Below are positions 1-31,945 of a stretch of 64,000 nucleotides of DNA, piece after piece. The stretch comes from Cycas panzhihuaensis. Its lineage: Eukaryota; Plantae; Cycadophyta. The stretch spans positions 204,235,741 through 204,299,740 of the forward strand of contig CM041465.1 of assembly GCA_023213395.1 (NCBI GenBank). The letters run 5' to 3'. The notes under the pieces are model-generated. The model ran no database searches and was not told where the DNA came from. It saw only the letters and a list, made by a program, of their open reading frames with translations. The first letter of the stretch is position 1. Every line of letters starts with the position of its first letter. The translations under genes were made by a program, and so were the position numbers.

Positions 1-587
1 TAAGCTATTTTTTAATGCCGTCAATTTTATTGGGTTCTTCATTTTCACTCAGTCAAAACAACTGGCTATACTCACATATTGGGCTTGCTTTTTAAAGTGC
101 ATTTACTGTTTTAAAGTTATAAGAATTTTGCCATAACAAATTATGTATTAAAGATGATTTAGACCTTCTTGTATTGTTTAGCCCATAACTTTATCATAAA
201 GTGTCAAATTTAGGTCTCGTTTAAGGCATAAGATTTCTAATTTAATTATCTATAAAGTAAGTAGTTATTTTAGCATATTTTATGTATCTTTTTATGTTTA
301 AAGTTGATGTAAGCTTTTAAGGCTTCTTACGAATTAACCCTATAAACAAAACTTTACACAAACTCCTCTTTATAATATCAAATTAATATAAAAATATTTA
401 TTTTGGAAGTGGTTAAGTCATAATTAGGACACTTGTTCATGTCCCAAAGTTGAAAAGGGACTATTTATCTTAAGCTTAAGTGATCTTTTATCCCCATTTA
501 ATGCCTCTTACTCCATTTTATTTCAAGCACACTTACCCCTTTATCATTAAGCACCTTTACACTTTTAACTAGTTTATTTTCTTCATC

Positions 588-3072: not shown

Positions 3073-6000
3073 TATTTCCTGGCTACCGGGAATAGACATG
3101 GGCGAGTCGACTTAGGTAAGTACATGTATGCTTCTATCCCTACACTTGTTAGTTTTTAAAAAGGTAGGTTGAGGCACTTCACCTACATTACATGATGATT
3201 GATTCACTGTATGACCACTATGCATCCATTGCTTAACCACACTGCATCTCTGCACCTTTTCAACCTATGATGATCTAGCGATACATATCCCATGGTGCTC
3301 CACAACCCTCCTCCTTACCTCCATAATGTTCCCAAGTACCATTTGGCTTCTGTAGCCCAATCACATCACCTGTCGGTGCATCATGACCCTTGGCACCTGG
3401 CCTAGGCTTGGTTGTCAACCTACGTCCATTTGTCGTCCTTTTAGAGAATCTTTCGCCTTTATTACTTGTCTGTCGTGGCCTCCCTAAGCCCCATAACTCC
3501 TTCCTTCCACCTGGATAGAGTACTTTGCTTCTCTGGGCCTGAGTTTCTCCTCTTTTGGAGCTTCTGGGCTCCTCTTCCCTTGCTTTTCCCTTTGTTTCTA
3601 CCGCACTGCATTAAACTTCGTGGTACCACTGCAAACTTCACTAAGATCGTTAAGTTTATCATGGGCATCGTCCACGCTGATTATTTTTTAAAATTTTCCA
3701 CAGTTAATTTCGTATTTATTACAAAATTACCACATGGAAGTGACTTGTTTCTTGCCTAGGCAGAACCCTAATTTCTCAATTGAGTTAGGGTTGGGTTTGA
3801 AAACCCAAAAAAACCCTTATTTCATCTCTCTCTCACTCATCTTTTCCACTACTTCTTTCAAAAATGCCTTGCAAATAGGACCAAGTCTACTACATCTACT
3901 TCTTAGCCAGCTACCAGCCTCTTATAGCTCTAGACACATAGTTGTAGGCCTGTAGTATGGCCAGCCAAGAGAAGATTATGCTCCAAATGCTCCATCAAGT
4001 TCCAACTACCTTTCTTGCTCCAATTTTCTTCCTGCTTGTTGCACTATTAGGTTTTTTTCCTGCAAACCCCATAGGGCTTACTCCTTCATTCAATTTCATA
4101 GGTAGATGTTCCTCAAATCCTCCTATAACAGGTAAATCCTAGTCAATCCTTTGCTTTCTTTTCTTTGAGCAACATAAATACTACTTGCCAATACTTTTTT
4201 GCAGCAACTTTTTTCTTTCTTTCTATTGCAAATGGGAGACAAACCCTCCCCTTTCGCCTATTTGTTGTTTCTTTTAATTCCTTCCTAGTTTCTTCAAGAA
4301 GATAGCAAGGGAGAGGAACCTATGGAGAGTGAAAGGAGCTAAAGGTGGGGTCCTTCACCCAACAAGCCTTCTCCTCAAGGGAAATCCCCTTCTCTCCTCA
4401 ACTCTCCCTTCTTTATACCTCCCTTAAGTCCCCAAGGGGCCATTGGAAGATAGACCATTGCTGGCAGCAGCATAGGTAGCCCATTACTGCTCTTGCCACT
4501 AGCCCAGTAGATCCTACATGGGTGGGGTTTCAACCCCTACTCCATATTCTCTTGTCCCTTGGTTCTAAACTTTTGCGAAACTCGCAAATGTTGTGTGTTG
4601 TAACTTCTACGATCTTAGAAATGTTTATAACATTTCTTGCTGTCATTGCTTGTATTCTTAGAAGCTGGTTTGCATTCATTTCCCCTTTTTATCCTAGTAC
4701 TTAGGGGTAGCGTGGAGCACCTTTGATGTAGAGGGTTAGCCATTCTGAGGCTAACCACCCTTCCTCTTTCTCTCTCCCCCCTTTTCCCATATTACATACC
4801 AAATAACATACGAAGCATAAGGAGTGATATTAGTGTTGAATATATTTCTTCTAATTAAGATAGTTGTATCCTGTCACTTTCTAAATTACATATATGTCTT
4901 GTATATGTTTGGTGCCCCTTGGGAAAGGGAGAACCTTATTGGTTGCAGGTTTTCTTTTACACTTGGAGGAAAAAGGGGACTTCATCCCAGGTATGTTTCC
5001 TTTTCTTTCAATAGTTACTTTCTTTTTCTCTCAAAGTTGTAAAGTGGAGTTGCAATAGTTTTTATATTTCCTTACATTACATTTATTTTTTCCTTTTTGA
5101 TTTCGAAAAAGGTAAGGAAGCCCCCCTTCTTTGTCGGCACTCCTTCTATCATGCCATTCGTGGTTAGGAGAAGGGTGAAGATCGCAAGCATGGTGAGGGA
5201 AGCACTACTTCAACCATCATATTTCAGGTATGCATCCCTTGTTTTAGCCTTCTTCTCCTTGTCTCTTTTCCCCCTCTTTTGAATACCATTTGGGTAAAAA
5301 GGGAAGAAAAATATTGGTTTGGATCTCTTGCACTTCACTTGCTTGTTTTTTTGCAAAGCTTATATAGTGGAAATCTAGGCACTTGCATGTGTATACCCCT
5401 CCCATTTTATTGCATTGTCACCTAGTAACTTTACACCCTTTTGCATGAGCTTCATGTCACATAGTGATCTCTTTGATCTCCCTACTTTTCATTTAAAAAG
5501 ATAAAGAGAGTGAGGTTGCATGCATAAGTAAACAAGAGAGAGAGATTTGCATTACTTTGTTGTCTCTGAAAGTGATTCCTTTAAGCATAAACATATGACA
5601 TTACCCTAAAATACCATACTCTCACCTTGCGTTTCTTAACCATATACAAAACAAAGACAAACACAAAGACAACCATTCTTGTTGACTCGTCACTCCTAGA
5701 ATCCTCTTTAGGTTTGGCCCCTTAAGAGTACCTCCTCTCAAGGTCGTTTGCTTTATCTTTCTTATTTCTCTAGGCTGGACTTCCCGAGTTTGGCCTTTAG
5801 GTCAACGTCTAGCTTATAAAACTAGCCATCATTTTAACCACTCACGTTATAAGATGCCTTAGGCTTACGTGTGTGTTCTTTCCCTTTTCTTATTAAGGAT
5901 CATCCCTATCATAACCTCTTCATACAATGAGCCATTCCCTCATCTCTTTCCTCCCTCCTTCGGCCATCCAAGGACAGGAGGGCCTCTTTTGAGGTTACTT

Positions 6001-6231
6001 AGTAAACTGAGGAGATCCTTTGTTTATCCACCACTCCAGATCGAGGAAGAGTTATCTCAAAGGAGTTTGTGCGCTATTTGTAGGTCTCAAACCTACGTTC
6101 TGATGCACAGATGCCCTTTGTGAGTGAATCCCTTCACTTATTATGATAGGTCCATAGCCATCTAAAACCATTAGTTGTCTGCCTCGATCTCATTCGAGTG
6201 TAGAAACAGCCCCCCTAGAGGTGCAATTCCA
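3073..6231 (+). repeat. 5' LTR of Tat element (~3.16 kb)
   Basis: Colinear with 20505-23615; begins TATTTCC (TGTTTC in the 3' copy) and ends TTCCA. Sampled 60-nt blocks differ at about 6-7 sites, mostly transitions. Confidence 0.95.
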
Positions 6232-6232
6232 C

Positions 6233-6253
6233 TAGCGACCATACTAGGGACTC
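6233..6253 (+). promoter_or_regulatory. Primer binding site, tRNA-Arg type (degenerate)
   Basis: TAGCGACCATACTAGGGACTC immediately after the 5' LTR resembles TGGCGACCA..CTGGGAC, the complement of a plant tRNA-Arg 3' end as used by Ogre/Tat elements. Confidence 0.7.
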
Positions 6254-7685
6254 ACTAGTAAGGGATTGATCCTCTCTCCCTTCTTGTTGGTGCTACTTCC
6301 TTTCTTATAGCTCTCCTCGATTCATTGGGTGACCCCTAACACTTATCACATTATCTCTTTCCCTTCTAATTTTTAGGGGGAACTTGTATGTGGTGGTTCT
6401 CTCATCGCTTACGAGGCCTTCCTTCTTTGTTAGAAGACTCTTGTTATCATCCCCTTCCTTCGTTGAATTCTGATTTGACCATTGAAGGATTCCCTTCAGA
6501 TTAGAAATATCATGCCTATGCTTCTGTATCTCACGAGCCATCCACCTCCTTCTAAGGGCCCACCCAAGAGGGTGAGGACCCTATCTGTTATCCAGGTGAC
6601 CAAGAACACCTACAAGTCCATCACCTCTCCACTCATGAAGTGGAGGCGTCTTCTCCTTTAGAGTTCCACCACCTTGGTGGTGACTCTCATGAGGATCGTC
6701 CCATGAGGTCTGCCTCATATGAGGACCCTTCCACCTCTTATGATCAAGCCCCCCCCCCCCCCCGCAGATGTTGTGGAAGCCCTTAACCACTACTTCCAAG
6801 TTGTCAGCCTATAATCACATTCTAAGTGGTTCGAGAATATCTTGCGAAGTATTGCGCTTCCTTCTTCCACATCCGCTCTATCTTGTCTATTTTATTTGAC
6901 TCCCTTACCTACAACGAGGGCGTCCCTCGCTTCATCCTTCTCTTCCTATACTCCATGTTCCTTAGGGACCACCAAAGGTATGTCTTCTTCCCAACTTGGG
7001 TTGACAATGCCCCCCTCCAGTCAAACAATTACACCTCTAGTCAAACAACTACACCTCCACCAACCATAGTATATCCACCTCCTTTTAGATTTAGGGGACC
7101 CGCATGCGCCCTTACTTCTAGTCACGTGAGGGCTGCCCCCACATATTCCCAAGCTCAACTTAGGGATCCTTCCCTTTACTTACCTCTAGGTTATGCTTCT
7201 CAATCGTGGGGGCATGGTAAGGGAAACACCCTTCCAATTTATGGAGTGGATCTTTGCATATGTATGGCATTGCGCCACCTACAGGCAGGCCATATGGGCA
7301 AAACCCAGATCTACATCCCTTTGTTCCATCCTCCTACGTCATCTCTCACGTTGTGCCTTTATAAGGAGGGCAAGTCCCCTTCCAAAGCGCCATCTCCCAA
7401 GATCCTTCCAACAAGGGGCATACCCACAAGGGGGATGGGTCCCTCATACCCATCCACTCCTCTACCAATTCATTTGAATGTGGGATTGGTGCCTTCTCAC
7501 CAAACGAGAGGAGGTCAATATCTCCTTTAGAACCAAGTCTCCCAAGGAGGATTTTGGTAAGCTTGCCCACCTCCTCCTCCATCTTTCATCGATCCTATGG
7601 TCTAATCAAGGGCACACCCCTTTATGGATTATAGATCAACACCTCTATCCATTGAGGCGCTAAGAACCAACTTACCGTCTCACCC

Positions 7686-8187
7686 TCCCGAGGTTCCCAA
7701 ATTCAATGGGATCTCTTCGTAGGACCCAATGGAGCATGTCATAAGTTTTTTTATGGCATGCATTGATTATTGGGCATACAACTATATCCTAATGAAACTC
7801 TTCCTACACTCTCTCTAAGGCAATGTCCTTAAATGGTTCTATCGCCTTTTAATACACTCTATTTACTTATTCCAATAACTCATTGACAAATTTGTTAAAT
7901 ATTTTGATGTAGCTCGTCCTTTCGAGAGTGGAATGAAGGCTCTCATGTCTCTTAAACAAGGTCACGATGAGATGAATCATGACTTTGTGAGGCACTTTCA
8001 TAATCTTCTCCACTCCATAAAGGCAACCCTGCTTGAGGAGTTAAAGCAAGATCTCTTTGTTAACGCCCTTTGCCCCGAAGTCCACATTGAAGTCCTCAAA
8101 ATAGAGGCAACAATGTGTGATTCTGCCATAGCCAAGTGCTTGGCGCTTGAGGCCATTGAGATCCAGGTGGGTCTCATAACGACGTGA
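7686..8187 (+). pseudogene. Tat gag (Retrotrans_gag-like), with stops
   Basis: PEVPKFNG..DPMEHV..F; MKLFLHSL.GNVLKWFY; LMSLKQGHDEMNHDFVRHF. Confidence 0.85.
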
Positions 8188-9239
8188 GGTACCTCCACCA
8201 CCTCGCGACGTAAAAGTCCAACAGCCTCCTAGGTCTTCATCTCATCCGACATAGAAGACCTTGGATTACTTAACTTCCACTATATGTTCTTTCGAAGGTA
8301 CCATGAAGAAGCTTAAACTTCAAGCCCCTTCATCACCCACTTCTTACAAACCAGTCACCCACTTACCACAAACTAGTCCACCAAGCTTTTCAATCTGCTC
8401 CCCTCAAGGGTGATAATACTCAATCCTCTCAAACGAGGAAGCTAGATTCCTCCTTAGAGAAGAAGTGGTGTTCCATCTATGGGGAATGCTTCTACGAAGA
8501 TTCACAATGTAGAGCCCAACACCCTAGAGCTGCCCCACAACATGACTCTTCCCCCAAATGGGCATCTAGGCCCAACCTAGACCAACCCATCCACAAGGAT
8601 CCTTTCCCTAAACATGGGGAAAGTGATCGCAATACCCATCAAAAGGGTAATCGAAACAGAGGAAGGTCCCCAAACCCTCGCCCTTCACAAGCTAAAGGGA
8701 AGCGTGTAAGGAACTCTTCCTCTTTTTCCAATTCTCCTAACTGTCAAACTCCTTCCCCCTCTCGTTCCCAAAATAAAGGAAAGGGGGTCATTCAAATGCT
8801 TGAGACCATGTCGTTATATGTCTTAACCCAGTCCCAAGTAGCTAAAGAGGTAATCGATGCCTCTTCCTCCACTTCTCACATTGATCCTCCTTTGGAAGTC
8901 CCTCCTTTAGAAATCCTCATGCTTCCTAAGACCATTCTTGTGCACCCCGGTCGTTATGATTTCTGAAGGATGCTTCCCCAACCTACTGCCAAGGGGAAAC
9001 CCTTCTCCATCGTTGATGAGCTTCACACTGTGGCCGCGAGATGTCGATGATGGATGTCTTGAGAAGCTATCATGAGTAATGCACCTTTTTCTTATAGGCT
9101 TTGGATTTAGTTAACGCATTCATTCATGCCTTGGGTATTGCCCCAAGTCATGTACTTGTCATCTCCTTCAACCCCAAAGATCTCCCCCCAGCCAGTGAAA
9201 GGGAACACCAATGGCACTAACCCTTCACTATAACTATAG

Positions 9240-12200
9240 AAACAACCAGATGCATCCTTTGAAGAACCATTGTAGATAATGGTTCTTCTGTTAATGCCAT
9301 GACCTTGTTCATCATACAAGAGCTTGGCATCTCAGCCCCTGAACCAGTTCCATGGCGGTGTCAAGGCTATGATAGTAGCGAAAAGACACCCTTGGGATCG
9401 GTATCTATTCCCCTTACTCTTAAGGATAAAACTATCCTCACCGATATTGTAGTCCTCAATGTGGACGTTGACTATAACCTCTTGTTGGGATACCCATGGG
9501 TTGACTAAATGGGGGTCATGTGCTCATCCCGTTAGGGGCAACTTAAATTCATCCATGAAGGACAAATGAGGGTTAACCCCCAGGAGCCTCCTCCCAGCAA
9601 ACAATCCCGTCAACCTCATCAAGCAGTTTATGACAAGGCAAAGGGTGATAAAGGCCCTTCTACCCTTGCCTCTACTTGTTCTATTGACATTCCTAGTTCA
9701 TCTCACCTGGAAAAAGGTCCTTTCCCTTCTTCCTTAAACCTTATTTGCTTCACCCCTATTGGTGTAGGGACCTATGGGTACCTCGTCGTACTTAGTGACG
9801 ACGAGTCTGACAACGAGGATGAGGACCTCCCTCATCTCATATCCCTCCTAAACATGAGTAGAAGGTACTCTCTTCATTCCAAGCCCCAACATGGAGCCTC
9901 TTCCATCGAGGAGTCTGTTCCTCCTCTTGAGTCGCATGTTTTTGCTCCTACCTCTCATGCGATCTCCCATGTCATCTCGTCTTCCACTTCATTACCTTCC
10001 GTAGGCGATGAGGCGATGGAACCTCTTATCACCCGTCACAAGAGGGTACCCTCTGACTCTTCTGAAGAGTCCCTTGAGTACATCGAGTGGTGGGTCGATC
10101 GCTACGACCCTACCACTCCTTGCACTTCTCACCCCTCGTCTTCTCGAAGCATGCTTATTTATAGGGTAGACCGCTTTAAGGATGATGAGGCCTTGCTTAA
10201 GCATTTAGCACACTTCAAGCCTAATTTCCCTCTTGATCACCATAAACTTGGTCACCAGAAGATCTTATCCATTAGGTCACCTCTGGCTGACCTAAACCCA
10301 TCTTCTTTTTCTTCGCCTCCTCATGTTGACCGAGCCCCCATTCACTTCAAGGAAGGGAATGCTATGTGCATGGGGGCAACCAAGGACATCATCCTTACTC
10401 CCGATAAGGTCATAAGAGTGGGAGTGGAATGCTCTTTTGATGAAATGAAGGAATACACCCTTCTTTTCCAAGAATTCCATGATGTTTCTACATGGGACTA
10501 TTCTGACATGAAGGGAATAGACCCTTCTATCATCACCCATAACCTCACCACCATTCCGGGCACTTGCCCTGTGAAACAAAAGTAGCACCCTCTTCACCCA
10601 AAACTTTTAGGTACTGTGAATATGGAAGTTGAGAAACTCTTAGACACGGGGTTAATCACTTCCATTGATTACCCCAAATGGGTGTCTAACATCATTCCTA
10701 TTACTAAAAAGAGTGGGACGAAGGATAACTTTCCTCTTCCCTTCATCGATCAAATCATTAATCGAACTGTCCGATTTGAAGTCATGTCCCTGATAGACAA
10801 CTTCTCGGGTTACAACCAAATCCAAATCTCCACTGAAGACTATCACAAGATGACCTTCACCATGCCTTGGGGCACCTTCGCTTACAATGTGATATCCTTT
10901 GGGCTTAAGAACGCAGGTGCCACTTATCAAAGGGCGATGTAATTTGTCTTTCACAACCTTATTAACAAAACTCTTGAGGTTTTTATGGATGACATGATGG
11001 GCCTTTTGCACATAAGGGCCAATTATCCTAGTGATTTGTAGGCCATCTTCATACGATGCTGCAAATACCATGCAAGCCTAAACCCCCTTAAATGCGCATT
11101 TGCCCTGACAATTGGTAAGCTCCTTAGATTCCTCATTTCGAAACAAGGTATCTAAATTGACCCCAACAAAGTCAAGGCCACCCTTGTCATGCCTCCTCCT
11201 AAGACCCAACGATAAATTAAGTCATTCTTGAGTAGGTTAGGCTTCCTTAGGTGTTTCATAGTGAATTTTTCGATAAATGCCAAACCCCACACCAACCTAT
11301 TGAAGAAAGGGGCCCCATTTGTTTGGTCTCCAAATGCCCAACAAGCCTTCAAGGAGCTCAAGAGAGCTCTTGCTCCTGCTCCAACTTTGGCACCCCTTGT
11401 CTTTAATAGACCCTTCATCCTCTATACCTCGGCCACTGATGAATCCTTGGGCACCATGCTTGCCCAAGAGGATGACTCGGGAACCGAGAGAGCTATTTAT
11501 TTCATCAGTTGCACCCTAGTGGCTTCTGAACTTAACTACTCCCCTGTAGAGAAGGAGTGCCTCTCCTTGGTGGATGCTACCAAGAAGTTCAAGTACTACT
11601 TGCTCAGAAATACTACTCGAGTGATCATCCAATCTGATCCCTTGAGGTATTTGCTAACTCGATCTGACCTGACAGGTTGGACTGGCAAGTAGGTCATCCT
11701 CCTCTAGGAATTTGATCTTTAAATCATTAACAGGAAATTGAAGAAAGGGATGGCCGTCATCAAGTAACTCGCCAACACCCCCATCCCAAATTCTTCTAAT
11801 GCTCTTATCAATGATTCCTTGCCTGATGAGCCTATTTTGGCTATTCAAGATTCCCATCCCCATCTATTAGCTAACGGTGATTGGTATAGGGATATTGTAT
11901 GATACCTCATTGAGCAGCAGTATCATCCCGATGTAAGTGACAAGGTTAGGTCACGTATTTGGGCTATTGCCAGGTATTATTTCCTCATGGGAGAGGTATT
12001 TTATAAGAGATCTTTTGATGAGATCCTTCTCCGCTGTGTTAACCCCAATGAGGCGGGCCAAATACTTTGCGAATGCCATAACAACATTTGTAGGGGTCAT
12101 TTTGGGGGCCAATCCATGGCCCAAAGGATCCTTCGTATGGGGTATTATTGGCCATCCCTCTTTAAGGATGCCCACACCTATGCCCTGCGATGTCATTGGT

Positions 12201-13126
12201 GTCAAGAGCATGCCAATGTCGTCCATCTGCCTTTTGAGGTCTTACACCCTGTCATATCTCCATGGCCTTTCTCTCAATGGGGATTAGACCTCATTGGGGC
12301 CATAGCTCCTCCTTCCTTATCACAACACAAGTTCATCTTGACCATGACAGAATACTTCACTTAATGGGCCAAAGTGGTCCCTCTATCCTCTACTCCTGGC
12401 AAAATGATAGCCACCTTTATCTACCAGCATATCATTTATCAATTCGTGGTCCTTGACATCTCGATCACGGACAATGGAACTCCCTTTTATAATAAGGAAA
12501 TGGATGAACTTTGTAAGAAATTTAAGATATCTCACAAAACCTCCTCTCCTTATTACCCCCAGGCCAATGGCTAAATAAAATATTTTAACAAAACCCTCAT
12601 AAATATCCTGAAGAAAACCATTACCCAATCTAAAAATGATTGGCACCTTCAACTTCCTTCTGTCCTATGGGCGTATCACACATCCATTCATACAACTATG
12701 GGAATGACACTATTCTCCCTTATGTATAGAACTGAGGCGGTTCTCCCATTGGAAGTTAAGATCCCTTCCTTGCAAGTTTCCCTTCGGGGTTTTATTGACG
12801 AGGAATCCTGCCATCGAGCCCGTCTCCTAGATCTCGAAGCCCTAGATTAGAAATGCTTGATTGCCTAATCAGCGAATCTCACCTCTAAGGCTAGGGCATA
12901 GAAGATGTATGACAAATGCCTTCGCCATCGCCCCTTGTATCCTAGGGACCATATCCTCAAGCTTGAATACCTTCATGATCACTTATCCAAATTTGGACCT
13001 AAATGGATTGGTCCTTTCTTCGTTCTCGAAAGCCTTAATAAAGACGCCTACATGATTGCAACCCTGGAGGGCCTCAAATTTGAGAAAGATGTCAATGGTA
13101 AGTTCCTTAAGAAATTCTACGTATGA
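9240..13126 (+). pseudogene. Tat pol: protease, RT, RNase H, integrase; stops, frameshifts and a deletion
   Basis: PR VDNGSSVN and YNLLLGYPW; RT KDNFPLPFIDQ, FSGYNQI, FGLKNAGATYQRAM, FMDD; RH NYSPVEKECL; INT H-H-C-C, WGLDLIG, ITDNGTPF, YPQANG, GPKWIGPF, VNGKFLKKFYV*. Confidence 0.93.
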
Positions 13127-13849
13127 CTGTCCTTACTCTTGAGTAGGCTAGGCACCTCGATGCCCTTTTTCCTCACTCTGAAATAAGCCTAAACTACCAC
13201 TCTACGCGCGTCCTCATCCACCTAAATCACCAGTGGAATGACGGTTTAGGGTGGCTTTCCTGCCTCTACATTTTGTCCTATGGCATCTGGTGTTTCCCTC
13301 CCGAGGGAAGCCTTTCCTCCTTGTTGGACGTATTGGTTTCTGTCACTCCTGAGCACGGAAATGCACTCCAACCAGGATTGCATGCTTGAGTACACGTACT
13401 CACTCTCTCTCGTCGACACTTCCTTTGTATATCCTGCTATGCTCCTTGGATGGACATGCATGACTCTCCATCTCTTAATCTCATATGTGCCTACCACCTA
13501 TACTTATGGTGGTCATGTATGCCCGCTATGAGTATGGCCCTGCATGAAAAGAAGTATGAGCGGCACCCAAATAATCCAGCAACAAAAACCATATAACAAT
13601 CAACCAAAATCATCATAATCTATAACTGCTCATACACTTGTGCATCTATGTCCACATATATATAAACATATAAACAACAAATGCAATGTCATACACCATC
13701 ATAACACCATCATCATGGATCAAATGGCGTGCCAATAGGCCCTAATCTATATACATAAATAATCATATCATACAAATAATATAGTACATCATCTGCAGGA
13801 AATTGGAATCCTTGCAGGGAGGAGTACAATCATGTGGTAACATATGGTG

Positions 13850-16800
13850 ACTCCTTAGAGGTCTAGTGCTTTCTCAATCAAAACCCATCATACCCTACTC
13901 TTTGGCACTCCTATGCTCAAGGGGTATCGTCTCCTAGTTGACGTGATCTCTCCCTAGGAGACCATATGCCTCTTAGTCTCCTCCTGTGCCACTGTGAGCT
14001 CCTAACCTCGCTCCCCTCATCTCGAGGCCTCCTTAGGGTCACTGTCATCGTGTATGTCTGAGTGCTACTCTACAACGACTTTGTTGCCATCTGGTTCACT
14101 AGTTCATCATATCATGCTTAGATACGATCCCTCTACTCCTTTGAGTCTCTTCTCTAGAACATCTATCTTGATGCGGCTCTCTGCATCACCACTTGCTCCT
14201 CTATCCTAAGCCTCCAGTGCCTGGACTCGACCTCGTAAGGTATCTCTCTTTGCATGGGTCCTGTCTAGCTCTCCCTGTAGTTATCCCACCCTCGCCTAGT
14301 GCTCCTAGGACTCTGCTACCCATGTGTCCCTAGCTCTAATCAGTGGGACGAATGTTGTTGTGTGTGCCCTTGTTGATCGATGCTCCTTTCTAACCTGAAT
14401 GGGAGGTTGCCCCTCCGCGTAGACTTGGGGGAATACCTCCCAAACTACTGCCTCTATCAACCTCCCCATTTTCACTGCTCCTGCCAAGTCAAACATGTCA
14501 CGTGTTAGTCTATACACCTATTTATCAAATCCTTAAAGTAAAATCAAAGCAAACTATCTAGTCACTTAGTGGTTGAAAGATGTCAGGAAAAGGTAGTGTC
14601 TCACCTTCTGAGATGGTTGACTCCCCAACTCAGATGACCACCTCCTCCTCGGGACCTCCCTCAGCTACTGGTACCTCCTCCTCCTTGAGTACCACCTGTT
14701 TCCCAGCTACTGGGAATGGACTCAAGACTCATCAACGCAGGTATGTTCAGGTATACATTCTTACTTTTTCTTGCCCATGCTTAATTAAGGTTATTTAGCA
14801 TAGGTTGCTTGACATACGCCTATCTGCATGCATTGCTTCGCTGCTTGATCATGTTGCATGTGCCTATGGCACTTTATCAGCCTATGACGACTCACAACGG
14901 GGGCATTTCTCAGCAAATGCTACACCCCGTATGGCGCACAGCCACCTACATTGTCTCCATGGTCTCCCGGGATGTTTCAGTCAGTCCTGTTTGCTCTCGT
15001 TACAACATGTTGCTCACGTTGCAGTCCCTCCTAAGCCTGATTTAATCCTTAGTTAGTACTCATTTCATTATTTTGGCTACTTGCCCATTACAGGCATTCC
15101 CATTGCTCGACTCTTTTTTGGTCTTGATTTTTACTTCAAAACCTTATGTTTCTACTTCTTTTTCTCTTTTTTTATCTCCAGTCTGATACCGTTGTAAACT
15201 TAGTGGTACCGTGGTCTTTCTTTGCTGATCTGCAGATTCTGCATGATCTGCTTGAAATTTTAAAAAAAGAGAACCACGCGATAGTTTTTATTTTTTTTGT
15301 GGAACTACCACGTGGCGTCGATTGATTCGAGTCACCCTGACATCCCCAACGTTCACCTGCTGTGAACAGGGGGATAAAAAGGGATTTTTCTCTCCATTCT
15401 CAAGAACTTTTGCCAATTTTCTGACTTTTCAACTAAAAAAAACACATGGAGAAAGATACAATCTACATGCACAGGAACTTGTCACAGAAGAGGAGGACTG
15501 CTACCAGCTAGATTTGCAGGGCCATTACTGCCCCCTACAACTCTCAACAGCAAGCCTCATACCTCTTTGCAGGTGCTCAAGGTTCCAAAGGATATTTCTA
15601 CCCAAAAGCTTCTCCAAAGAGCTAATTTCCAAGGTTCTAAGTTTGCAAGGATTTTTCCTCACTTCACTCTTGTAAAAACCTGTCATGATCAGCCCTCATA
15701 CATTAGATATTGCTACTGTTTCCTAACAGCAAAGCTCACGCTTGATTCTCTTCCTACAAGGTATTTCTTGTTCCTACTTGCAATTCATTTTGTTCTTATT
15801 TCTTTTGTCTGTTAATGAATGAAATCTTAGTTTGGCTAGTTTTCTTTATGTTGTTGCACTAGATTAGTGACATTCCCATGTTCTTTTGAGGCCTCACTAT
15901 TTTCCTTAAACCATCTCTTTTACCCCTTCCTTGGTTAGTCGGTGCAAAGGAGCAATATAAGAGGATTTGAGGGAGGTAGGCGGGGTTCCGTCCCCCATTG
16001 TTGTCCTTCTCCCCAAGGGTTCCATCCCTTATCCTCTTTCCCTTTGCCATTAGTGCTTTCTTAGGGAATGGGCTAAGGGAGTTTAGGGAATTTAGTTGTG
16101 GTGTTCAAGTTAGCATAGGCAACCCGTCGCTCTGTCATTTCCAGAAGTCTCATCTGTCGATGTTGGGCCCTACCTAAGCCCCAAATCTCTCTGTTATTCC
16201 TTTCTTTGTTACTGCCTGTTGCTTCACGACCTTGTTGCCAACTCACTTTTCCTTCTCGAGTTCTGTGGGGTTTCTTCGTGGGTGAGTTAGCCATCCCGAG
16301 GGTATACTCTTTTCCCTTTTGGGCATCTTTGTGGTGTATGGTGGTGAGAGTATTTCTTGCATGTTGCTATTTTATTTGGCTACATATCGATGCTTAGCAT
16401 AGATTTTAGTTCCATTTGATTTTAGTATATATATTTTGGTATATTTCGTGGCCTCTCTTCCGAGAGGAAGGTATTCTTCTCACATGTTTGCAGGATCGCG
16501 CGTTAGTGGAGTGATACGTGGAACAAACCCGTTGCAGGTTAGTTCCCCGTGTGGTGCATTTCTTTTCTGTTTCACGCTTTCGTTTCTTTTTTCCGTTTAT
16601 TCACTTTTGCATGCTTAAGGGGAGGTAAGTAAGCCCCTCTTCTATCACTTTCGGCAACTGCCGCCGATCGGCATCGCATGCACGACGAACGGAGTAGAAA
16701 GGAGCAGGACTTAAAGCAGCGGCACTCCATTCGGTAGGATCTAGGTATTCTCCTTGTTTCCCATGTATCCCTTTTACATTGTCACCTTTCATATATTTTC

Positions 16801-18900
16801 TTGTGTAGTTAGGAAATTGTAAAAGATTAAAAAGGAAAAAGGAAAAGTGCACTCATTTTTACATTATTTCTTGCTTTAGCTAGCGTAGCATAACGTAGTT
16901 AGATTGTTTACGTTGCATTCGAGTTACCCTCATTGCGCCCCCTTTGTTGCATTTGCCCATACACTAGTTAGTTGCCCTTCCGTTCGTTGCCTTCTTATTA
17001 CCTTGAGAAGACACAACGCACAAGGTGCTTTCTCCTCTTCCCGGCCATCCGAGGGGTAGGAAGGCCTTGCTTTGCACGGCTACCTGGAAGCAACCAGGCA
17101 CCTTGCAGTTCTGAATTTACACTCCGGCACACGGACACTCTGTGAGGTGAAGTCCTTGCTGCCTAGTTTAGTTAGCATTGCATATATTTATATCCTTTTT
17201 GCTAGATGTAGGGACACTGCCTCGTAGTGAGCGTTTCACCACCTCACTGACCTCTTGGCCTACCAGGACATCTCCTCCTCCCTCTCTCGCCATCACTCAC
17301 GCCTTTGCCATCGCATGAGCTCTACCTACTACCCTCAGTCTTTGAACTGGTGTGCGGGGTGGTCTACCTCCTCTTACAGCTCTTAAAGGACCTACACCTC
17401 CTCCTGAAGCTCCCGAAGGCCCTGCCTCTCCTCCTGTGGTCACTTATAGACCCGTCTCATCTCCCTCACCTCCATCGATATCCCCACCATCTCTAGGACC
17501 ATCTCTTGCTGCTCCTGCCTTGTCTTAGCTATCCCACCTCAATCCTTTATATGGATATGTTGTATAGTTTGCCAGAGTGAGGAGGTCTAGCGATGTTGCC
17601 TCCAGTGACCGCTTGACATGCGCCTGATCCTCGGTCCCTCTAAATCGAGTCTGCCACATGTGCATCATAGGAACTCACACTGAGATAGGGTGTGGTCCTC
17701 CTGGTGGTGCTACTACCCAAAAATGATCAAAGAACCAACACTTTAGTAGTGTGCAATAGGAGAATCCTCCTCTCCCTGTCATTATGATTACGTTTAACTG
17801 GGTGACCATATCCGCCACTATCAGGGTGGCCCAATCCAGTCTCTCCCTGGCCTCACATCTCCTGACAATATCCATCCACCCGCTGGGTATGTCTCTATGG
17901 TTTTGTTTTTAGGAGATCCAGAACAGAAAGCCTAATATAATCATAACCATAGTTTGGACTGATATCCTGTGTCAGTCCCACCTGCCCTAGCCAATAAAAA
18001 ATATGGTCGCCTCCATGTGTGTGGTATCTGTGCTGGGCAACGTGCCCAACAAAGCTAGCGCTCCCCCTGCTGGTATACCTAGGATTCTCCAAATGTCTCC
18101 CTGTGTGATGGTAACATCCCCCACTTGGGGAAGGTGGAAGATGTACTGCCTGCAATCCCAATCAGAGAATATGTCTACCAAGAGGCGCTAATTTGATGCG
18201 TACTAAGGGTCCTGATAATCTTTAGTAGCCCACATCATCTCAATATCTGTATGTCCCCTTGTGTCATCATCTCAATAAAACTCATCATCATAATCCCTAT
18301 GTTCTTGTGGTTGTCTACTGCGATAATTACCTACAAAAAGTACCCAACAATCAGTCAGAACACTCCAAACTCAGCTTGCCTACCCTCAGGTTGCCTCTGC
18401 CCCTCTTTGGGCTACGTTTGGCACATTTCCGGGTAACTTTTCTTCTTTTTTCTACTAATTCCCCTCTACCCCGCGTTAAACTCTGTGGTACTGCAAAGTT
18501 TGACATGGGCCCTGCTAAGATTTCAGCATTTTCTCAATGGCCCCATAATAAACTCTGCAGCATCATGATTTTCGCTATGGGGCCCTTTATCCCCCCCTCA
18601 AGGGGGCGGGGGATGCCCCAAAAACTCAAATTTTTTCATCTAAATAGGTTTAATCCATGCCTATTCAAACTAGGGCTACCTAATGCCCTGGTCCTCCCCC
18701 TCTCTAGGCCCAAATTGAGCTCCAAAGAGCCCCAAATTGCCCTCAAGGGGCCAGAAATTACTCCAAAAAATATAAAGAATACATTAAATTCAATTGACAA
18801 AATGGAATGGGTAAGGGGTGATCCACTTACTGGGTCTGGCCTTGCTACTACCATCTCGTCATCCTGATCTCGTCGACTGTCTCTGTGCCTCAATCCGACG
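13850..18900 (-). pseudogene. Antisense accessory gene of the Tat element with aminotransferase-like plant mobile domain (PMD), acidic tract and coiled-coil-like tail; interrupted by a solo LTR; ends approximate
   Basis: DWDCRQYIFHLPQVGDVTITQGDIWRILGIPAGG (17987-18181) matches the PMD motif W...T.TFHLP.GE.TITL.DV..ILGLP..G. LDWATLIVADM...GFSYCTLLKCWFFDHF (17675-17875) matches the later PMD motif. The E-rich frame continues across the solo-LTR junction. Confidence 0.8.
14697..17238 (+). mobile_element. Solo LTR (~2.54 kb) of a Tat-related family
   Basis: TGTTTCCC...GTTTCA termini; exact TSD CCACC at 14692-14696 and 17239-17243; homologous end-to-end to 54927-57429. Confidence 0.93.
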
Positions 18901-19585
18901 GTTAGATCTCCTGCTGTGTGCCTCCAAAGTTGGGCAGTGCTCCACTATGTAATGGAAAGAGCTCTAGATTGATCGTGAGCCTGTGAAAATGAATTCTATT
19001 TTCGTTGAGTTTCTTTTATATAGGCAGGGGCCCTAACGGGTACTTCCTCCTTTCCTTCTGTCGTGACATCTCCTGCGACTTCCTCTTTTCCTATATCATT
19101 TTTTCCTTCTAGGTATGTCCCCTATTTCATTGTTGTGGCCTCTATTTTATGCTTCTTCGATATATTTATGATGATCCCTTTAGTCTTTCGCAGATCCCTT
19201 TCGTCTCCATTTTTGCACCATCCCAAAACTTACCCATGTTTATACTCGTTTGGCTCATTTCGTCATCCTGAGTCTGCTTTTGCCACCCTTCGAGCCTTTG
19301 GGGCCCCCAAAAGAAGTGCCTCCGTCATCTAGGACCTTTCTTTACTCCTTTTGGCAACCTTTGGGACCCCGAAGGGGTCTTTTCACCATCATTTCTTTCC
19401 CTTTCATCGGGTCAGTCTCCTCATCCCCGGGTAGCCTCCTTCTGGGGTCCTCTTTCCCTTCGTGACCTTTATTTATAGCCCCTGAGTGCTTCCTAGCTCT
19501 TACTCTATTTGCTCCTTTCCTCAGCTGGTTGACCCCGTCGTCACTCTTTTTCCACCTCCGTCTCATCAAGACCCTCGTCTCTCTT

Positions 19586-20010
19586 CCCATAGCTTTACTC
19601 ATCTTCACCGACGGTGGAAGTCATGGCAACCCAAGCCCTTCATTGCTGCGTGGATACTCCGTGACCCCTTTAGATATGATTACATGCATTATGGGGTCTT
19701 CCTTCCTGAAGCTATCAATAACGAAGCTGAGTACACAGTCGTTATTAAAGCCCTCATCGATGCACTCCGCTTCTACCGTGGACACATCATCCTTCTTTGT
19801 GACTCTCAGATTATGGTGTCACAACTTACCCAGGTTTACGAGGTGTGTTGCCCTTGCCTGAGGGCCCTCGCCTCGATCGCTAGGTCCCTTTTGTCTCACT
19901 TTTCTTCCATAGATATTTAACATATTCCTTGGGCCCACAATGATGAGGCGGACGACCTCGTCCACCTCATCTTCGAGCATCGCCTCCTTCTCCTCGATAA
20001 TCCCCCTTGA
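19586..20010 (+). pseudogene. Additional archaeal-type RNase H (aRH), separate from pol; one frameshift and one stop
   Basis: IFTDGGSHGNP / NNEAEY / CDSQIMVSQL / HIPWAHNDEADDL give the D-E-D-D RNase HI signature. No aRH lies between RH and INT in pol. Confidence 0.88.
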
Positions 20011-20504
20011 GGAACCTATCTTGTCACCTGAGAGCCAAGGTTCTGGGTCATCTCACCTTCCACGTCATGATCTGTTTGCACCTCTAAAAGCTGGCCACTA
20101 ATAAGGCTAAACTATGGTGACCACCAGGTTTGTTTTCTTCACCTTATTGTTCATATCGCTCCTGGTACATAGTCCTTATTATTCTAGTCCTTCTATGTAC
20201 ATAACATCCCATACATATCATTTATTTGATCATGTTTGTGATTATCACTACTATTTATCTTGCACTCATGCGATGAGGGCACCCCCTCATCTATTATCAC
20301 TATCAGTCAACTCTAGGGTGATGCATAGGTAGCCCATATACTGTCACTCTCTCAGCTCCCTGTCCACGCATCCCACCATGACACTTGCTATTACCCTTGG
20401 TTGATAACATTTTTATATTTATTGTATATTGCAAACTTTTTGTTTCCAGCATTCTTCATCACATTACACTTCTAAGCAATGAGGCTCTACTGCCAAGTGG
20501 GCAG

Positions 20505-23500
20505 TGTTTCTTGGCTATCAGGAATGGACATGGATGAGTCAACTTAAGTAAGTATAGGTATGCTTCTATCCCTACACTTATTATTTTAGAAAAGGTAGGT
20601 TGAGGCACTTCACCTACATTGCATGATGATTGATTCACTACATGACCATTATGCATCCACTGCTTGACCACACTACATCTATGCACCCTTTTAGCCTATG
20701 ATAATCTAGGGATACATATACCATGGAGCTCCATAACCCTCCTCCTTGCCTCCATAATGTTCCCAAGTACCATTTCACTTTTGTAGCCCAATCACATCAC
20801 CCGTTGGCGCATCAGGACCCCTGGTGCCTCACCTAAGCTTAGTTATCATCCTGCGTCCATTTGTCATCCTTTTGGGGAACCTTTTACCTTTATTACTTAT
20901 CCTCATGGCCTCTTTAAGCCCTATAACTCCTTCCTGCTACCTAGAAAGAGTACCTTTCTTCTTTGAGCCTGAGTTTCCCCTATTTTGGAGCTTCTGGGCT
21001 CCTCTTCCCTTGCTTTTCCCTTTGTTTCTGTTGTACTACATTAAACTCTATAGTACCGCTGCAAACTTCACCGTATCACTAAGTTTACCATAGGGTGACT
21101 GTCCAAAATTATTTTTTCAAATTTGCCATGGCTAATTTCATATTTGTTGCAAAATTACCACATGGCAACGACTTGTTTCTTGCCCAGGCTAAACCCTAAT
21201 CACTTGATTGAGCTAGGATTGGATTTAAAAGCCCAAAAACACCCTCATTTCATCTCTCTCTCACTCATTGTTTCCACTACTTCTTCCAAAAATACCCTGC
21301 AAACAAGACCAAGTCTGCTACATCTACTTCTTTGCTAACTACCAGCCTTTTGCATCTCCAGATGTGCAGTTGCAGGCCTATAGTGTGGCCAACCAAGAGA
21401 AGATCATGCTCCAAATGATCCATCAAGTTCCAGCTACATTTCTTGCTCTAGTTTTCTTCCTACTTGCTACACCATTAGGGTTTTCTCCTACAAACCCTAC
21501 AAGGCTTACTCGTTCATTTAATTTTATAAGTAGATCTACCTCAGATCCTCTTATAACAGGTACCTCCTGGTTAGTTCTTTGCTTTCTTTCCTTTGAGTAA
21601 CATAAATACTACTTACCAATACTTTTTTGCAATAACTTTTTTCTTTCTTCTATTGCAAACGGGAGGCAAACCCTCCCCTTTCGCCTGTTTGTTTATTCTT
21701 TTGGTTTCTTTAAGGAGGTAGCAAGGGAGAGGCACCTACAGAGAGTGAAAGGAGCTAAAGGTGAGGTCTTGCACCCAATGCACCTTCACCTCAAGGGCAG
21801 TCCCCTTCTCTCCTCACCTCTCCTTTCTCCATACCTCCATTGAGTACTTAAGGGGCCATTAGAAGATAGACCATTACTGGCAACAGCATAGGTAGCCCAT
21901 TGCTGCACTTGCCACCAACCCAGTAGATCCTACATGGGTGTGGTTTTAGCCCCCACTCCATATTCTCTTATCCCTTGGTTTTAAACTTTTGTAAAAGTTA
22001 CAAAAGTTGCGTGTTGTAACTTCTATGACATTGGCAATGTTTGTAACATTTCTTGTCGTCATTACTTATATTCTTAGAAGCTGGTTTGCATCCATTTCCC
22101 CCTTTCATCCTGGTACTTAGGCGCAGCATGGAGCACCTTTGATTTAGAGGGTTAGCCATTTTGGGGCTAACCATCATTTCTCTTTCTCTCTCCCTCCTTT
22201 TCCCATATTACATTCCAAATAACATACAAAACATAAGGAGTGATATTGGTATTGAATATATTTCTTCTAATTAAGATAGTTGTATCTTGTTACTTTCCAT
22301 ATTGCATATCTATCTTGTATATGTTTGGTGCCCCTTGGGAAAGGGCAAACCTTGTTAATTGTAGGTTTTCTTTTGTACTTGGAGGAAAAAGGGGACTTCA
22401 TCCCAGGTATGTTTCCTTTTCTTTCAATAGTTACTTTCTTTTGCCCTCAAAGTTGTAAAGTGGAGTTGTAATAGTTTTTACATTTCCTTGTGTTTTTCCT
22501 TTTGGATTTCGGGGAAGGTAAGGAAGCCCTCGTTCTTCATCGGCACTCCTTGCATCACGCCATCCTTGGTTAGGAGAAGGGTGAAGATCGTAAGCATGGT
22601 AAGGGAAGTGCTACTTTGAGTACCACATTTAAGGTATGCCTCCCTTGTTCTAGCCTTCTTCTCTTTCTCTCTTTTCCCCCTCTTTCGAATACCATTTGGG
22701 ATGGTTTGGATCTCTTGCACTTCACTTGCTTATTTTTTTGTAAAGCTCATATAGTAGAAATATAGGCACTTGCATGCGTGTACCCCTCTCATTTCATTGC
22801 ATCATCACCTAGTAACTTTGCACCCTTTTGCATGAGCTTCGTATCACATAGCAATCTCTTTGATCTCCCCTTTTCGTATTTAAAAAGACAAAGAGAGTGA
22901 GGTTACATGCATAAGTAAACGAGAGAGAGATTTGCATTACTTTTTTACCTCTAAAAGTGATTCCTTTAAATATAAGCATATGATATTACTCTAAAATACC
23001 ACATTCTCAACTTACATTTCTTAACCATATACAAAATAAAGACAAACACAAAGATAATCCTTCTTGTTGACTCGCCGCTCTTAGAATCCTCTTTAGGTTT
23101 GGCCCCTTAAGATCACCTCGTCTCAAGGTCATTTGCTTTATCTTTCTTGTTTCTCTAGGCTAGACTTCCCTAGATTGGTCTTTAGGTCAATGTCTAGTTT
23201 GTGAAACTACTCATCATCTTGACCACTCATGTTGCAAGTCGCCTTAGGCTTACATGCATGTTCTTCCCATTTTCTTATTAAGGATCATCCCCTTCATAAC
23301 CCCTTCATGTGAGGAGCCATTCCCTCACCTCTTTCCTTCCTCCTTCGGCCATCCAAGGATGGGAGGGCCCCTTTTGAGGTTACTCGGGAAATCGAGAAGG
23401 TCCTTCGTCTATCCACCACTCCATATTGAGGAAGAGTTACCTCATAGGAGTTTGTGTGCCATTTGCAAGTCCTGAACTTGCGTTTCGTTGTAAGGATGCC

Positions 23501-23615
23501 CGTTGTGGGTGATTCCCTTCACTTATCATCGTAGGTCCAGAGCCACCTAAAACCATTAATTGTTTGACTTGATCTCATTCGAGTGTAGCAACCCCCCCCA
23601 AGAGGTGTGATTCTA
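20505..23615 (+). repeat. 3' LTR of Tat element (~3.11 kb)
   Basis: Begins TGTTTC after a short purine-rich AAGTGGGCAG; colinear with 3073-6231; followed by the TSD. Confidence 0.95.
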
Positions 23616-23620
23616 GGTGC

Positions 23621-25240
23621 AAAGGAGTCATTACCCTTAAGATATTCTAAACATAACCTTTAAGAGAAGGATAACTAGATCTCAAAGGGTAAACTTTACA
23701 TTAATGACATAAATAATAGAGATAAGTGAGCCTCAAAACTTTAAAAAGTTAGATATCTAAGATGAATGGAGGATACCAATAAAAGAGGAGCATAATACCT
23801 TGGTGAAGAATGATACTTGGGAGTAAGATGATTTGCCACTTAGGAATAATACCACTGGAATAAAATTAGTTTATAAGACCTAGTACAGTTTAGATGGTTT
23901 AATCAATAAGTACAAGTCCTAACTAGTTGCAAAGGGTTATATATAAGTTAAAGGTATTGGCTATAATAAAATATTTATACTTATAGTAAGATTGGAGATA
24001 GTTAGATTAATCATGGACTTAGTTCTACAATATGGTTAGATAGTCCATTAAATGGATGTGAAGAGTGCCTTCTTGAATACGTATGTTAATAAGAAAATTT
24101 ATGTCCAACAACCTAATAGTTTTGGGATAAAAAATAAGGAAGATAAGGTCTATAAACTAAAAAAGACCTTATATATACTTAAGTAGGTACTTAGAGTATG
24201 GTACTCTAAGATTGATAAATACATCAAGAATAAAGGATTCCTAAGGAGCTAGTCAAACCCTAACTTATTTATTAAGTTAGAAGAAAGTAAAATATTAATT
24301 GTGGGCTTATATATAGATGACCTTGGGTACATTGAGAATTGTGATTACTTATCCCAATAATTTATGGTAGATATATGTAAGGAATATGAAATAACAAATT
24401 TGGGACTTACGTATTATTTGTTAGGCATTGAGATATGATAAGACAAAAATAAGATATTTGTTTCACAAAGAAGATGCATATTAGATATGTTTTATAGATT
24501 TAACATAGATAGTTATAAGCCACTTATAATACCCATAAAAGTTGGGTTAAAATTATCTAAGTATGAGAAGTCTGAATTAGTTGACCTTACTCTTTACAAG
24601 TAATTGATTGGGAGCCTTATATATTTAACTTCAACTCAACCATATATTATGTATGTAGTTAATGTAGTTTCTAGGTTTATACATGAGCTTATGATAAAAC
24701 ATTAGAAAGTAGCCAAAAGAATTCTCAGATATCTCAGTGGAACTATTAGGTATAGACCTCATTATAAGGTGATCATAGGTTAATTAGCTATATAGACTTA
24801 AATTGGGTAGGTTGTATAAATAATAAGAAGTCTACTTTAGGTTATGCATTTAGTTTAGGTTCAGTAGCAGTAGTATGGAGTTTAAAGAAATAGCCAATAA
24901 TATCTCTTTCTACTACAAAAGTAGTTGTAAGAAGAGCTTATAAGAAAGTTTAATTTAGGATATTACTTTAGGACTTATAATAAAAACAAGTCATAATTAT
25001 TTTATAATGATCAAAGTATAATTTAGATGATTAGGAATCCATTATTTCATAGTAGGACTAAGCACATTGAGATATACCATCACTTCATTAGAGACTTAGT
25101 GCAGTATGGAGAGTTAGAATTGATCTATTATAATACAAAGGATTAGGTTGAAGGTATCTTTACAAAGAAACTTAATAAGATAAAGTTTAATAAATTTAGA
25201 GATAATCTTAGAGTCTTCCTAAATAGGTATTATAGAGGAG
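23621..25240 (+). pseudogene. Copia RT-RNase H (3' part of copy 1)
   Basis: LVKNDTW, LVAKGY, MDVKSAFLN, LYIDDL, RTKHIEI motifs; colinear with ~34460-36085. Confidence 0.9.
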
Positions 25241-30203: not shown

Positions 30204-31945
30204 TTTATCTAGCCATGATGATAGCCACATCCATAGTTGGTCCACTCTTTGTCTAACCTTGATGATAGTCATAGCTTTAGTCAATCCAAATAAGGGCAAT
30301 CTAGTCTTAATTAAAACTAATCTAATTTCTTGTAGGAAACATATATAGATTACATCTATGAGCATGTTCTCTCTATTACATTGAAATTTTCATAAATAAT
30401 TTATCCTACAAAGGTAAATAAGGATATAAATGCAGCTTCCATGCATGACCCACTTCTATTTCCCAAATTCCAGGCTAAACAATATCATAAAAGTGTAAGA
30501 TTTGGGTTGTTTCAGAATAACCTGACTTTTAGGATGTTAGAAGCAAGGACTCACAGGCATCAATATACTTAATCTTCCAAATTTTATGGTTTATAACAAT
30601 AGTTATATGGTTAGCCTAATCTAGATAATAATATAATTCAATCACCTACTATAAGAATACATATCCTAGGTGCTAATAAAGCCTCCCAAGTGCTAATTGT
30701 GCACCTATGTATTTATCAAAGTATGCCACATATTATTGGTTGCAGCAGCACTAATCAGGCTTGCGTATAAAAAGGAAAAGACTTGGTCATAGTTATGAGT
30801 GACCTTTCAATTGGAATCATTGACCATGGCCGATGTAGAATGTCATGTATCTTCATGCTACTTCACACCTATTTAGACTAAATTCTTATATACTCTTCTT
30901 TTGTGTGAGTGCATATTTAATTTATAACCTTTTCTTTTTTGATATATTGATGTATTGAACTTAAATATTTTGTCATTTAATTTTGCATCCCTTTAATACT
31001 TTATGTAATATTTATGATTCATTCTCTTTCTTTGTGTCTTGATCTAAGTCATCTTTGTTAATAATCAAAGAAGCCTGCTATATTCTTGGGTCGTGACTAG
31101 TCCATCTCATACCCAAATACTTACAAGAGGCAGACATTATCCCATCGGTGAATCAAATAATCCTAAGATTTTGCTTTTATTACATTTTTAGTTTATGTTG
31201 AAGTTTGTAGGGTAAAGTGCTTATCATGATTAACTATCAGCTACTTAAGTCCTATAACAAAGTTCAGGTGACTAAACTTTTAGTTTAAAGAAGGATTACT
31301 AATTTATTTTTTAAGGAGGCTGTTCCAAAATGAGCACTTGTTTCTATTCTAACAAGAATATCTTCACTAATGGGGCCCATTTTTAGATTTACCAACTCTA
31401 AAGTGTTTTACATTTTTGCCCAAATAAAATGAGTGGTTACATGATTATGTTGGGTCTTTATTTAATAGTTTCTTTAATGACTAAAAGTTGATGAAAATTT
31501 TCTTTATGGTTCATATTCTAAAGGGTTGTTTATCCCTTTTTAACATCCTTGTACTTTTTAATATATAACTTAATTATAAAAAGTTGTAATTAAGTGTTGT
31601 TTGAAGCATTAGGTTTATATTTTGATCCTCTATTTAGTGAATGATCTTTCAAGGACTTTTGAAGTCATTTGATGCAATATTTTTATGATCAAATTTAATG
31701 TTAGTTTATGGGCTTCTTGTGAGTTGACCCTTGAATAGATATAGCAAAACTTCAGTTTGTAATCATTATTAATACAAAAATCTTATTTTAAAGGAGGTTA
31801 AATCCCAATTCGGACATTTTTGCATGTCCCAAAGTTAAAGGGAGATAAGTTTTGCTTGTTTAAGTGCATTTCAATATTTCTTTCAATAACTTTACCTTTT
31901 CAAAGCATCTTATGTTAAGACAATTTCTTTATCATTACCTTAAAC

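Follow-up and report, generated by a model that had tools for sequence, protein, structure and literature searches.

Two head-to-head accessory genes with candidate internal promoters in a decayed Tat retrotransposon of Cycas panzhihuaensis

The element and its two accessory genes

A decayed retrotransposon of the Tat group (Ty3/gypsy) lies in a stretch of 64,000 nucleotides from the cycad Cycas panzhihuaensis (contig CM041465.1 of assembly GCA_023213395.1), which was analysed as a whole and is called the window here; all positions are counted from its first letter. The element is bounded by long terminal repeats (LTRs), has a length of 20,543 bp and encloses two accessory genes between the integrase (INT) and the 3´ LTR (Table 1). 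One of them, on the minus strand, encodes a plant mobile domain (PMD), the other, on the plus strand, a stand-alone archaeal-type RNase H (aRH), and the two are located head to head. An earlier note on this DNA had described this arrangement, and the order, the strands and the domains were confirmed. A solo LTR of another family with its own target site duplication (TSD) is inserted in the antisense gene, therefore 2.5 kb of the cassette delimited in that note is an insertion. Once it is subtracted, the element is 18.0 kb long.

Table 1. Features of the Tat element in the window (PBS stands for primer binding site, PPT for polypurine tract, PR for protease, RT for reverse transcriptase, RH for the native RNase H of Pol and UTR for untranslated region).
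Feature	Position	Strand	Remarks
5´ LTR	3073-6231	+	TSD GGTGC at 3068-3072; PBS-like stretch at 6232-6250
gag-PR-RT-RH-INT remnants	7600-13126	+	Pfam, tblastn; interrupted by stops; INT stop at 13126
T-rich stretch, predicted to be the antisense gene's 3´ UTR	13560-13850	-	T makes up 41% of the minus strand here
Last predicted exon of the antisense gene, coiled-coil-like	13850-14481	-	decayed; true end uncertain
Predicted short intron 2	14482-14571	-	acceptor intact, donor degenerate
Nested solo LTR of another family	14697-17238	+	TG..CA ends; TSD CCACC on both sides; inside the antisense gene
PMD exon with Gly/Pro/Arg-rich tail	17243-18330	-	domain at about 18200-17560
Predicted intron 1	18331-18830	-	500 nt; GTAAGT donor, branch-point-like motif, T-tract, TAG acceptor
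Predicted leader exon	18831-18990	-	from the initiator near 18990
Minus TATA box TATATAAAAG	19022-19013	-	canonical; initiator at +32
Spacer between the boxes	19023-19469	.	447 nt; multi-copy in three organisms
Plus TATA-like box TATTTATAG	19470-19478	+	initiator at +32 (about 19502)
Predicted aRH 5´ leader	19500-19588	+	77% pyrimidine, without ATG
Stand-alone archaeal-type RNase H	19589-20010	+	about 140 codons; Pfam RVT_3 E 1.4e-10
PPT-like purine-rich stretch	20493-20504	+	abuts the 3´ LTR
3´ LTR	20505-23615	+	TSD GGTGC at 23616-23620

The two LTRs are 85.7% identical across 3107 aligned sites (Kimura two-parameter distance 0.16), which at usual gymnosperm rates amounts to tens of millions of years. 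The TSD has 5 bp, GGTGC on either side of the element. The PBS-like stretch behind the 5´ LTR may be similar to tRNA-Arg. Pfam found the domains in the gypsy order gag, PR, RT, RH and INT, every one of them broken, and no chromodomain after INT was matched by Pfam in the window.

An alignment revealed Ser in place of the first catalytic Asp of the native RH, both in the window and in an intact member of a sister family (L002, see below); the window element has in addition Gln at the third catalytic position. The positions of the canonical catalytic motif are those we presume for this enzyme. Judged from these residues, the catalytic core of the native RH is degenerate in both elements. The only match to an aRH in the window (tblastn) is located downstream of INT, at 19624-19977. 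Pfam matched no RNase H in the interval between PR and RT or in the interval of about 70 codons between RH and INT. Membership in Ogre/Retand, which requires an aRH between RH and INT, was rejected on this ground. A frame of 349 codons is open between PR and RT (9536-10585), at the position of the aRH in TatII, and yielded no Pfam match and no RNase H signal.

The antisense PMD gene

The minus-strand frame 18319-17528, read with X at stop codons, matches the PMD profile PF10536 (E 4.3e-8, 33.2 bits, profile positions 15-246 of 347) and aligns to an intact PMD of the sister family (E 5e-9, 21% identity). It is the most open of the six frames, with 7 stops compared to 11-18. These seven stops lie in 264 codons, and three of the seven fall where the frame is locally shifted, resulting in 2.7 stops per 100 codons, or 1.7 without the shifted stretch. 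The density is similar to the 1.7-2.5 found for gag, PR, RH and INT, consistent with decay after insertion. The earlier note had placed the start of the gene at about 18900; no in-frame start is present there in the window copy, and PMD homology begins near 18200.

The gene is predicted to have three exons, with a layout that resembles an ordinary spliced gene. The predicted short intron behind the PMD exon is also present in two sister loci, L001 and L008, and an acidic stretch (14573-14696) is located across the nested solo LTR from the PMD exon. A coiled-coil-like nature of the tail exon is weakly suggested by Pfam matches of the coiled-coil type (E 0.008 and 0.027) and by a best heptad register with 52% hydrophobic residues at a/d; the openness of its frame is not clearly above that of the other frames (4 stops compared to 5-12). 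A word-index search of longer proteins with the PMD returned no match, which is not evidence of absence, and the PMD exon of L001, folded from its single sequence, yielded no usable model (predicted local distance difference test 35).

The stand-alone archaeal-type RNase H

The earlier note's reading of the plus-strand gene as a stand-alone archaeal-type RNase H held. At E<=0.01 the only matches in the PDB were 4e19, 3hst and 3u3g, all of them stand-alone RNases HI, and the nearest solved and named relatives of the aRH are stand-alone RNases HI. All four acidic catalytic positions are kept; the position that is typically Arg in aRH is not Arg here. The copy is broken: the start codon is missing, a frameshift is located near 19640 and a stop at 19918. 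Among 97 protein matches, the three closest by identity (P0002-P0004, 55-59%) carry Met at the place of the missing start codon. A scan of viral contigs with the aRH returned 32 loci with 24-42% identity; a word-index search of proteins of near length gave no match, which again does not speak for absence. With the solo LTR subtracted, 3916 nt separate the aRH from the INT stop.

The spacer and its two promoter-like modules

The earlier note had reported a TATA-like element facing each way. Both motifs are present at these places, but the plus box is non-canonical, and its bases read as the canonical TATAAATA on the minus strand, where no initiator accompanies them. Since the boxes are 447 nt apart, they would form two back-to-back cores and not a single shared core.

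A module was defined as a TATA-like box with an initiator 29-35 nt downstream, the pattern being relaxed to admit TATTTATA. Across the 20.5-kb element, 25 TATA-like hits were found (9 on the plus and 16 on the minus strand). An initiator at the required distance accompanies three of them, which represent two sites; both sites are in the spacer, face outward and have the initiator at +32. When the 650-nt region was resampled 3000 times with a first-order Markov model, a module arose on the plus strand in 1.0% and on the minus strand in 0.6% of the resamplings, and on both strands in 1 of 3000.

We lean towards the view that the two accessory genes, head to head, are each expressed from their own internal TATA-plus-initiator promoter, and that the aRH would supply in trans the activity which the degenerate Pol RNase H lacks. 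The earlier note had proposed internal, LTR-independent promoters for both genes. The predicted promoter of the antisense PMD gene is well supported, by the TATA box, the initiator at +32 and a corresponding layout in L001; that of the aRH is moderately supported, by the motif, the leader and the start codon found in relatives.

Relatives of the window family

Each of six DNA sequencing runs, which represent three organisms, has 8-12% of the sampled words in common with the window. Reads from four runs, again representing three organisms, were placed on the window at 80% likeness; differences in depth between bins were not used for ranking parts of the element. All 30 bins of 16800-20700 were covered in all four runs. 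Overlapping contigs extend across this region, and in the three organisms multiple copies exist of the spacer, of both boxes and of both genes. One contig (19366-19598) joins the spacer to the aRH. Variants were read in detail over 19410-19640 in the four runs: a start codon is present at the head of the aRH in 93-94% of the depth in every run, in a strong context, and the plus-strand initiator varies among pyrimidines only.

These data bear on the possibility that the order arose by a rearrangement private to a minor sublineage, or that internal initiation on the genomic RNA yields the aRH, with a plus motif that is due to chance. The whole gene order is seen in a single copy only, because no contig reaches from the PMD to the aRH (the pieces have at most about 230 nt), and a bare TATA-like motif occurred on the plus strand in about 10% of the resamplings. 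We nevertheless consider this explanation improbable, given the multi-copy spacer, boxes and genes with their overlapping contigs, and the start codon that the relatives keep in a strong context.

A sister family with a different gene order

A scan with another cluster of stand-alone aRH identified 13 metagenome loci (L001-L013), of which L001 and L002 are near-identical. The INT of this sister family is 30-39% identical to that of the window. In an INT tree of 32 rows, which contains no named TatIII reference and in which the deep forks are open, the window falls into a clade with two proteins (support 100/99); the window family and the sister family are not grouped together.

In the six sister loci in which both could be placed, the aRH begins 93-127 nt after the INT stop. 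AG is located directly before the ATG of the aRH in 11 of the 13 loci (CAG in nine, AAG and GAG in one each), following a T-rich gap, and none of the 13 has a TATA-like motif within 150 nt upstream of the aRH. This junction is a candidate splice acceptor, either for an env-like subgenomic RNA or for a short intron uniting stop and start; no description of it was found in the accessible parts of the literature on these elements. A donor-like site is located near the end of INT, but a fusion of INT and aRH through splicing at this site was rejected, because the site is not kept in the sister loci and the relatives have their own start codon.

The sister loci thus raise the possibility that the window aRH, too, depends on a spliced, env-like subgenomic RNA that starts in the 5´ LTR. 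An internal promoter would then belong to the PMD gene alone, and the plus box would be incidental or minus-facing. The pyrimidine-rich leader in the window is similar to an acceptor tract. About 20 nt before the start of the aRH, an AG is without a variant among 40 of the 47 variant rows. However, no YAG is kept before the aRH start in the window family: the nearest acceptor-like AG and best candidate, at 19523-24, varies in the relatives. In addition, the TATA-like box and the initiator stand at promoter spacing, and the stretch to be removed would span many kilobases. We therefore regard splicing as a rather unlikely source of the window aRH.

Downstream of the aRH, an antisense gene is located tail to tail in five of the six sister loci with at least 400 nt of downstream DNA. 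The PMD was found in L001 and L008 and the tail exon in L002, L003 and L006; L010 has none of these parts. The antisense layout of L001 matches that of the window: a TATA box and a leader exon come first, an intron separates the latter from the PMD exon, and a short intron lies between this and the tail exon. The first intron of this gene in L001 (L001:3500-3800) contains tandem GC-rich units with GCGCGC cores, possibly a binding array.

The gene order of the sister family also bears on the co-regulated module of the earlier note, which would couple chromatin modulation to the removal of RNA:DNA hybrids: the PMD protein would open chromatin while the aRH, acting in the nucleus, clears the element of R-loops. 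With 447 nt between them, the divergent cores could have upstream elements in common. PMD-C proteins of the host act against Polycomb silencing and are similar to the VANC anti-silencing domain, as far as the accessible part of that source goes (10.1101/2024.09.27.615353). A protein made apart from Gag-Pol is also without an obvious route into particles. Such a coupling is unsupported, though, because in the sister family these two genes stand tail to tail, each with expression signals of its own, and because the aRH would have a simpler job, the replacement of the degenerate native RH. The head-to-head order is not required for PMD and aRH to coexist. Ogre elements have a PMD with the aRH inside Pol (PMC4408406, PMC6317226, both in the parts accessible); the native RH is degenerate in all Tat structures that bear an aRH (PMC10508981), suggesting a role in replication; and retrotransposon PMDs belong to clade A, whereas the functional data in the accessible parts of the literature concern clade C (10.1101/2024.09.27.615353, PMC5418596). 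We attach a low probability to the coupled module.

Ratios of nonsynonymous to synonymous substitution rates (dN/dS) were computed on the aRH and INT of the sister family, using the unsaturated pairs (13 of 36 for the aRH and 7 of 21 for INT; the 23 and 14 saturated pairs were dropped). For the aRH they were 0.10-0.13 among L006-L008 and 0.20-0.27 for L001/L002 against L003-L005; for INT they were 0.04-0.21. Substitution ratios of this kind indicate that the aRH of the sister family is under purifying selection.

Evaluation of the proposed expression

Several observations weigh against internal promoters for both genes. The plus box was found only with the relaxed pattern; with strict TATAWAW no module is present on the plus strand and the box faces minus. 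The block 19463-19480 around it showed no variant among 40 of the 47 variant rows, and 31 positions vary in 19444-19577, but this invariance is weak evidence because 7 of the 47 rows were unseen, the block is without CpG and coverage is low there. The relatives also have one to three extra bases between plus box and initiator. Neither LTR contains a TATA-plus-initiator module under the same rule, therefore the rule misses real promoters and is not sensitive. In the antisense gene, the PF10536 score is just under the curated cut-off of 34.9, and the observed stop densities, those of the pol genes included, are higher than those obtained by simulation (0.7-1.3 per 100 codons). The sister family speaks for splicing as the route by which a post-integrase aRH is expressed, and dN/dS of the aRH was 0.50-0.64 among the decayed loci L003-L005. 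The restriction of the full gene order to a single copy, described above, has to be added here.

With internal promoters as the preferred reading, the antisense gene with its PMD and coiled-coil parts would be transcribed from the minus TATA box and initiator, and its three predicted exons would be spliced. The gene would keep its introns through reverse transcription because the packaged genomic RNA is presumably the other (sense) strand. The aRH would be transcribed from the plus box and initiator, and its product, a free protein with about 140 residues, would act in trans, likely completing reverse transcription. By analogy, the PMD protein might be a nuclear and likely anti-silencing accessory factor. 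The head-to-head order likely goes back to a rearrangement by which the antisense gene came to lie between INT and aRH; this would have cut off the aRH from the INT-proximal acceptor-like signal that is seen in the sister family. A more far-reaching version appears doubtful to us. In it, the lineage would have shifted an essential replication enzyme from Gag-Pol to an internal promoter, next to and facing away from an anti-silencing gene with introns, and a single spacer would turn on both genes without the LTR, whereas the sister lineage would meet the same need by an env-like splice acceptor. If so, the two lineages together would answer how an aRH works from a separate ORF.

Comparison with known Tat elements

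In gymnosperms, lineage III of the Tat elements has been described with a Pol that carries the aRH C-terminally and with a PMD open reading frame (ORF) in antisense at the 3´ end (Ustyantsev 2015, in the part accessible, PMC4408406). REXdb defines TatIII by an aRH after INT (accessible part of PMC6317226), and TatIII corresponds to lineage III of Ustyantsev 2015 and to structure #3, with the clusters Tat H from conifers and Tat I from Cycas and Ginkgo (PMC10508981). For conifers, Cycas and Ginkgo, the aRH has been assigned to an ORF of its own (Biryukov and Ustyantsev 2023, PMC10508981). According to the accessible part of PMC6317226, a 5-bp TSD is present in 92% of TatIII. A PBS for tRNA-Arg or tRNA-His is a further TatIII trait.

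The window element has the structure of TatIII: the aRH is found only after INT and as a separate ORF, an antisense PMD is located in the 3´ region, the native RH is degenerate and the TSD has 5 bp. It differs in its gene order. In the published TatIII order, pol-aRH is followed by the antisense PMD, whereas in the window the PMD gene is located between INT and aRH, head to head with the latter and separating it from INT by 3.9 kb (solo LTR discounted). The tail of the window gene is coiled-coil-like, and in the accessible part of the literature such a tail is reported for lineages IV and V, not for III. Without the insertion the element has 18.0 kb, compared to 12.7-17.3 kb for TatIII in the accessible part of REXdb (PMC6317226). 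The earlier note had considered the parts known separately and the arrangement new. A stand-alone post-integrase aRH and an antisense PMD have both already been described for gymnosperm TatIII, and the head-to-head order does differ from the described one; the nested solo LTR, the two predicted introns and the coiled-coil-like tail had been missed. We found no description of the head-to-head order, or of a promoter or splice site of the aRH, in the text of the accessible literature; figures and the large REXdb supplements were outside this search, and a drawing may exist there, especially for Tat I.

Antisense accessory genes with their own promoter have precedents. Gene23 of maize Grande is an antisense gene with its own promoter and has a nuclear product (accessible part of PMC7264820). 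Like the PMD gene in the window, gene23 and the antisense 3´ ORFs of Retand and Ogre are located between pol and the 3´ LTR; they have an internal promoter of their own, as is predicted for the PMD gene. Unlike the window element, Retand and Ogre have the aRH within Pol, between RH and INT, and no second, sense gene across the promoter. Arabidopsis MAIN, MAIL1 and MAIL2 (PMD-C) have the PMD in common with the antisense gene and are leads for a role in chromatin (PMC5418596, 10.1101/2024.09.27.615353). They are host genes of another PMD clade, and the accessible parts of these sources report a function for PMD-C only and none for the PMD-A of retrotransposons.

Other features of the window

A second copy of the solo LTR is located at 54927-57429 (TSD CTCTC) and is 65% identical to the copy nested in the antisense gene. 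Both solo LTRs start like the LTR of the Tat element, yet without a significant blastn match to it. In the two Tat LTRs and in both solo LTRs, donor-like (GGTAAG, GGTATG) and acceptor-like motifs can be seen by eye, as if spliced leader exons were contained in them. The Tat element is inserted in an AT-rich repeat that appears copia-like by eye; its halves (158-3070 and 23621-25233) match 31539-36086 with 68-74%. A host HSP70 gene (59119-61159, Pfam E 4e-224), apparently intact, GC-rich and with one intron, is located 1.7 kb from the second solo LTR. An inverted repeat is present at 47073-47739, with arms of about 330 nt that are 80-83% complementary and 18 nt between the arms.

Implications for Tat elements

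How an aRH domain works from a separate ORF outside pol was asked in PMC10508981, and the status of such an aRH is still called controversial in the accessible part of a 2026 paper (PMC13468544), in the text of which the words "PMD" and "promoter" are absent. The window copy is dead, its expression is predicted from sequence, and the interest of the locus is mainly for transposon specialists. Together with the sister family it offers two testable answers to the question of the separate ORF: an internal TATA-initiator promoter on the one hand and a splice acceptor at the ATG on the other. If true, the internal promoter would explain how a detached aRH is produced. The three-exon layout of the antisense PMD gene, common to the window and L001, suggests that such elements carry ordinary spliced genes.

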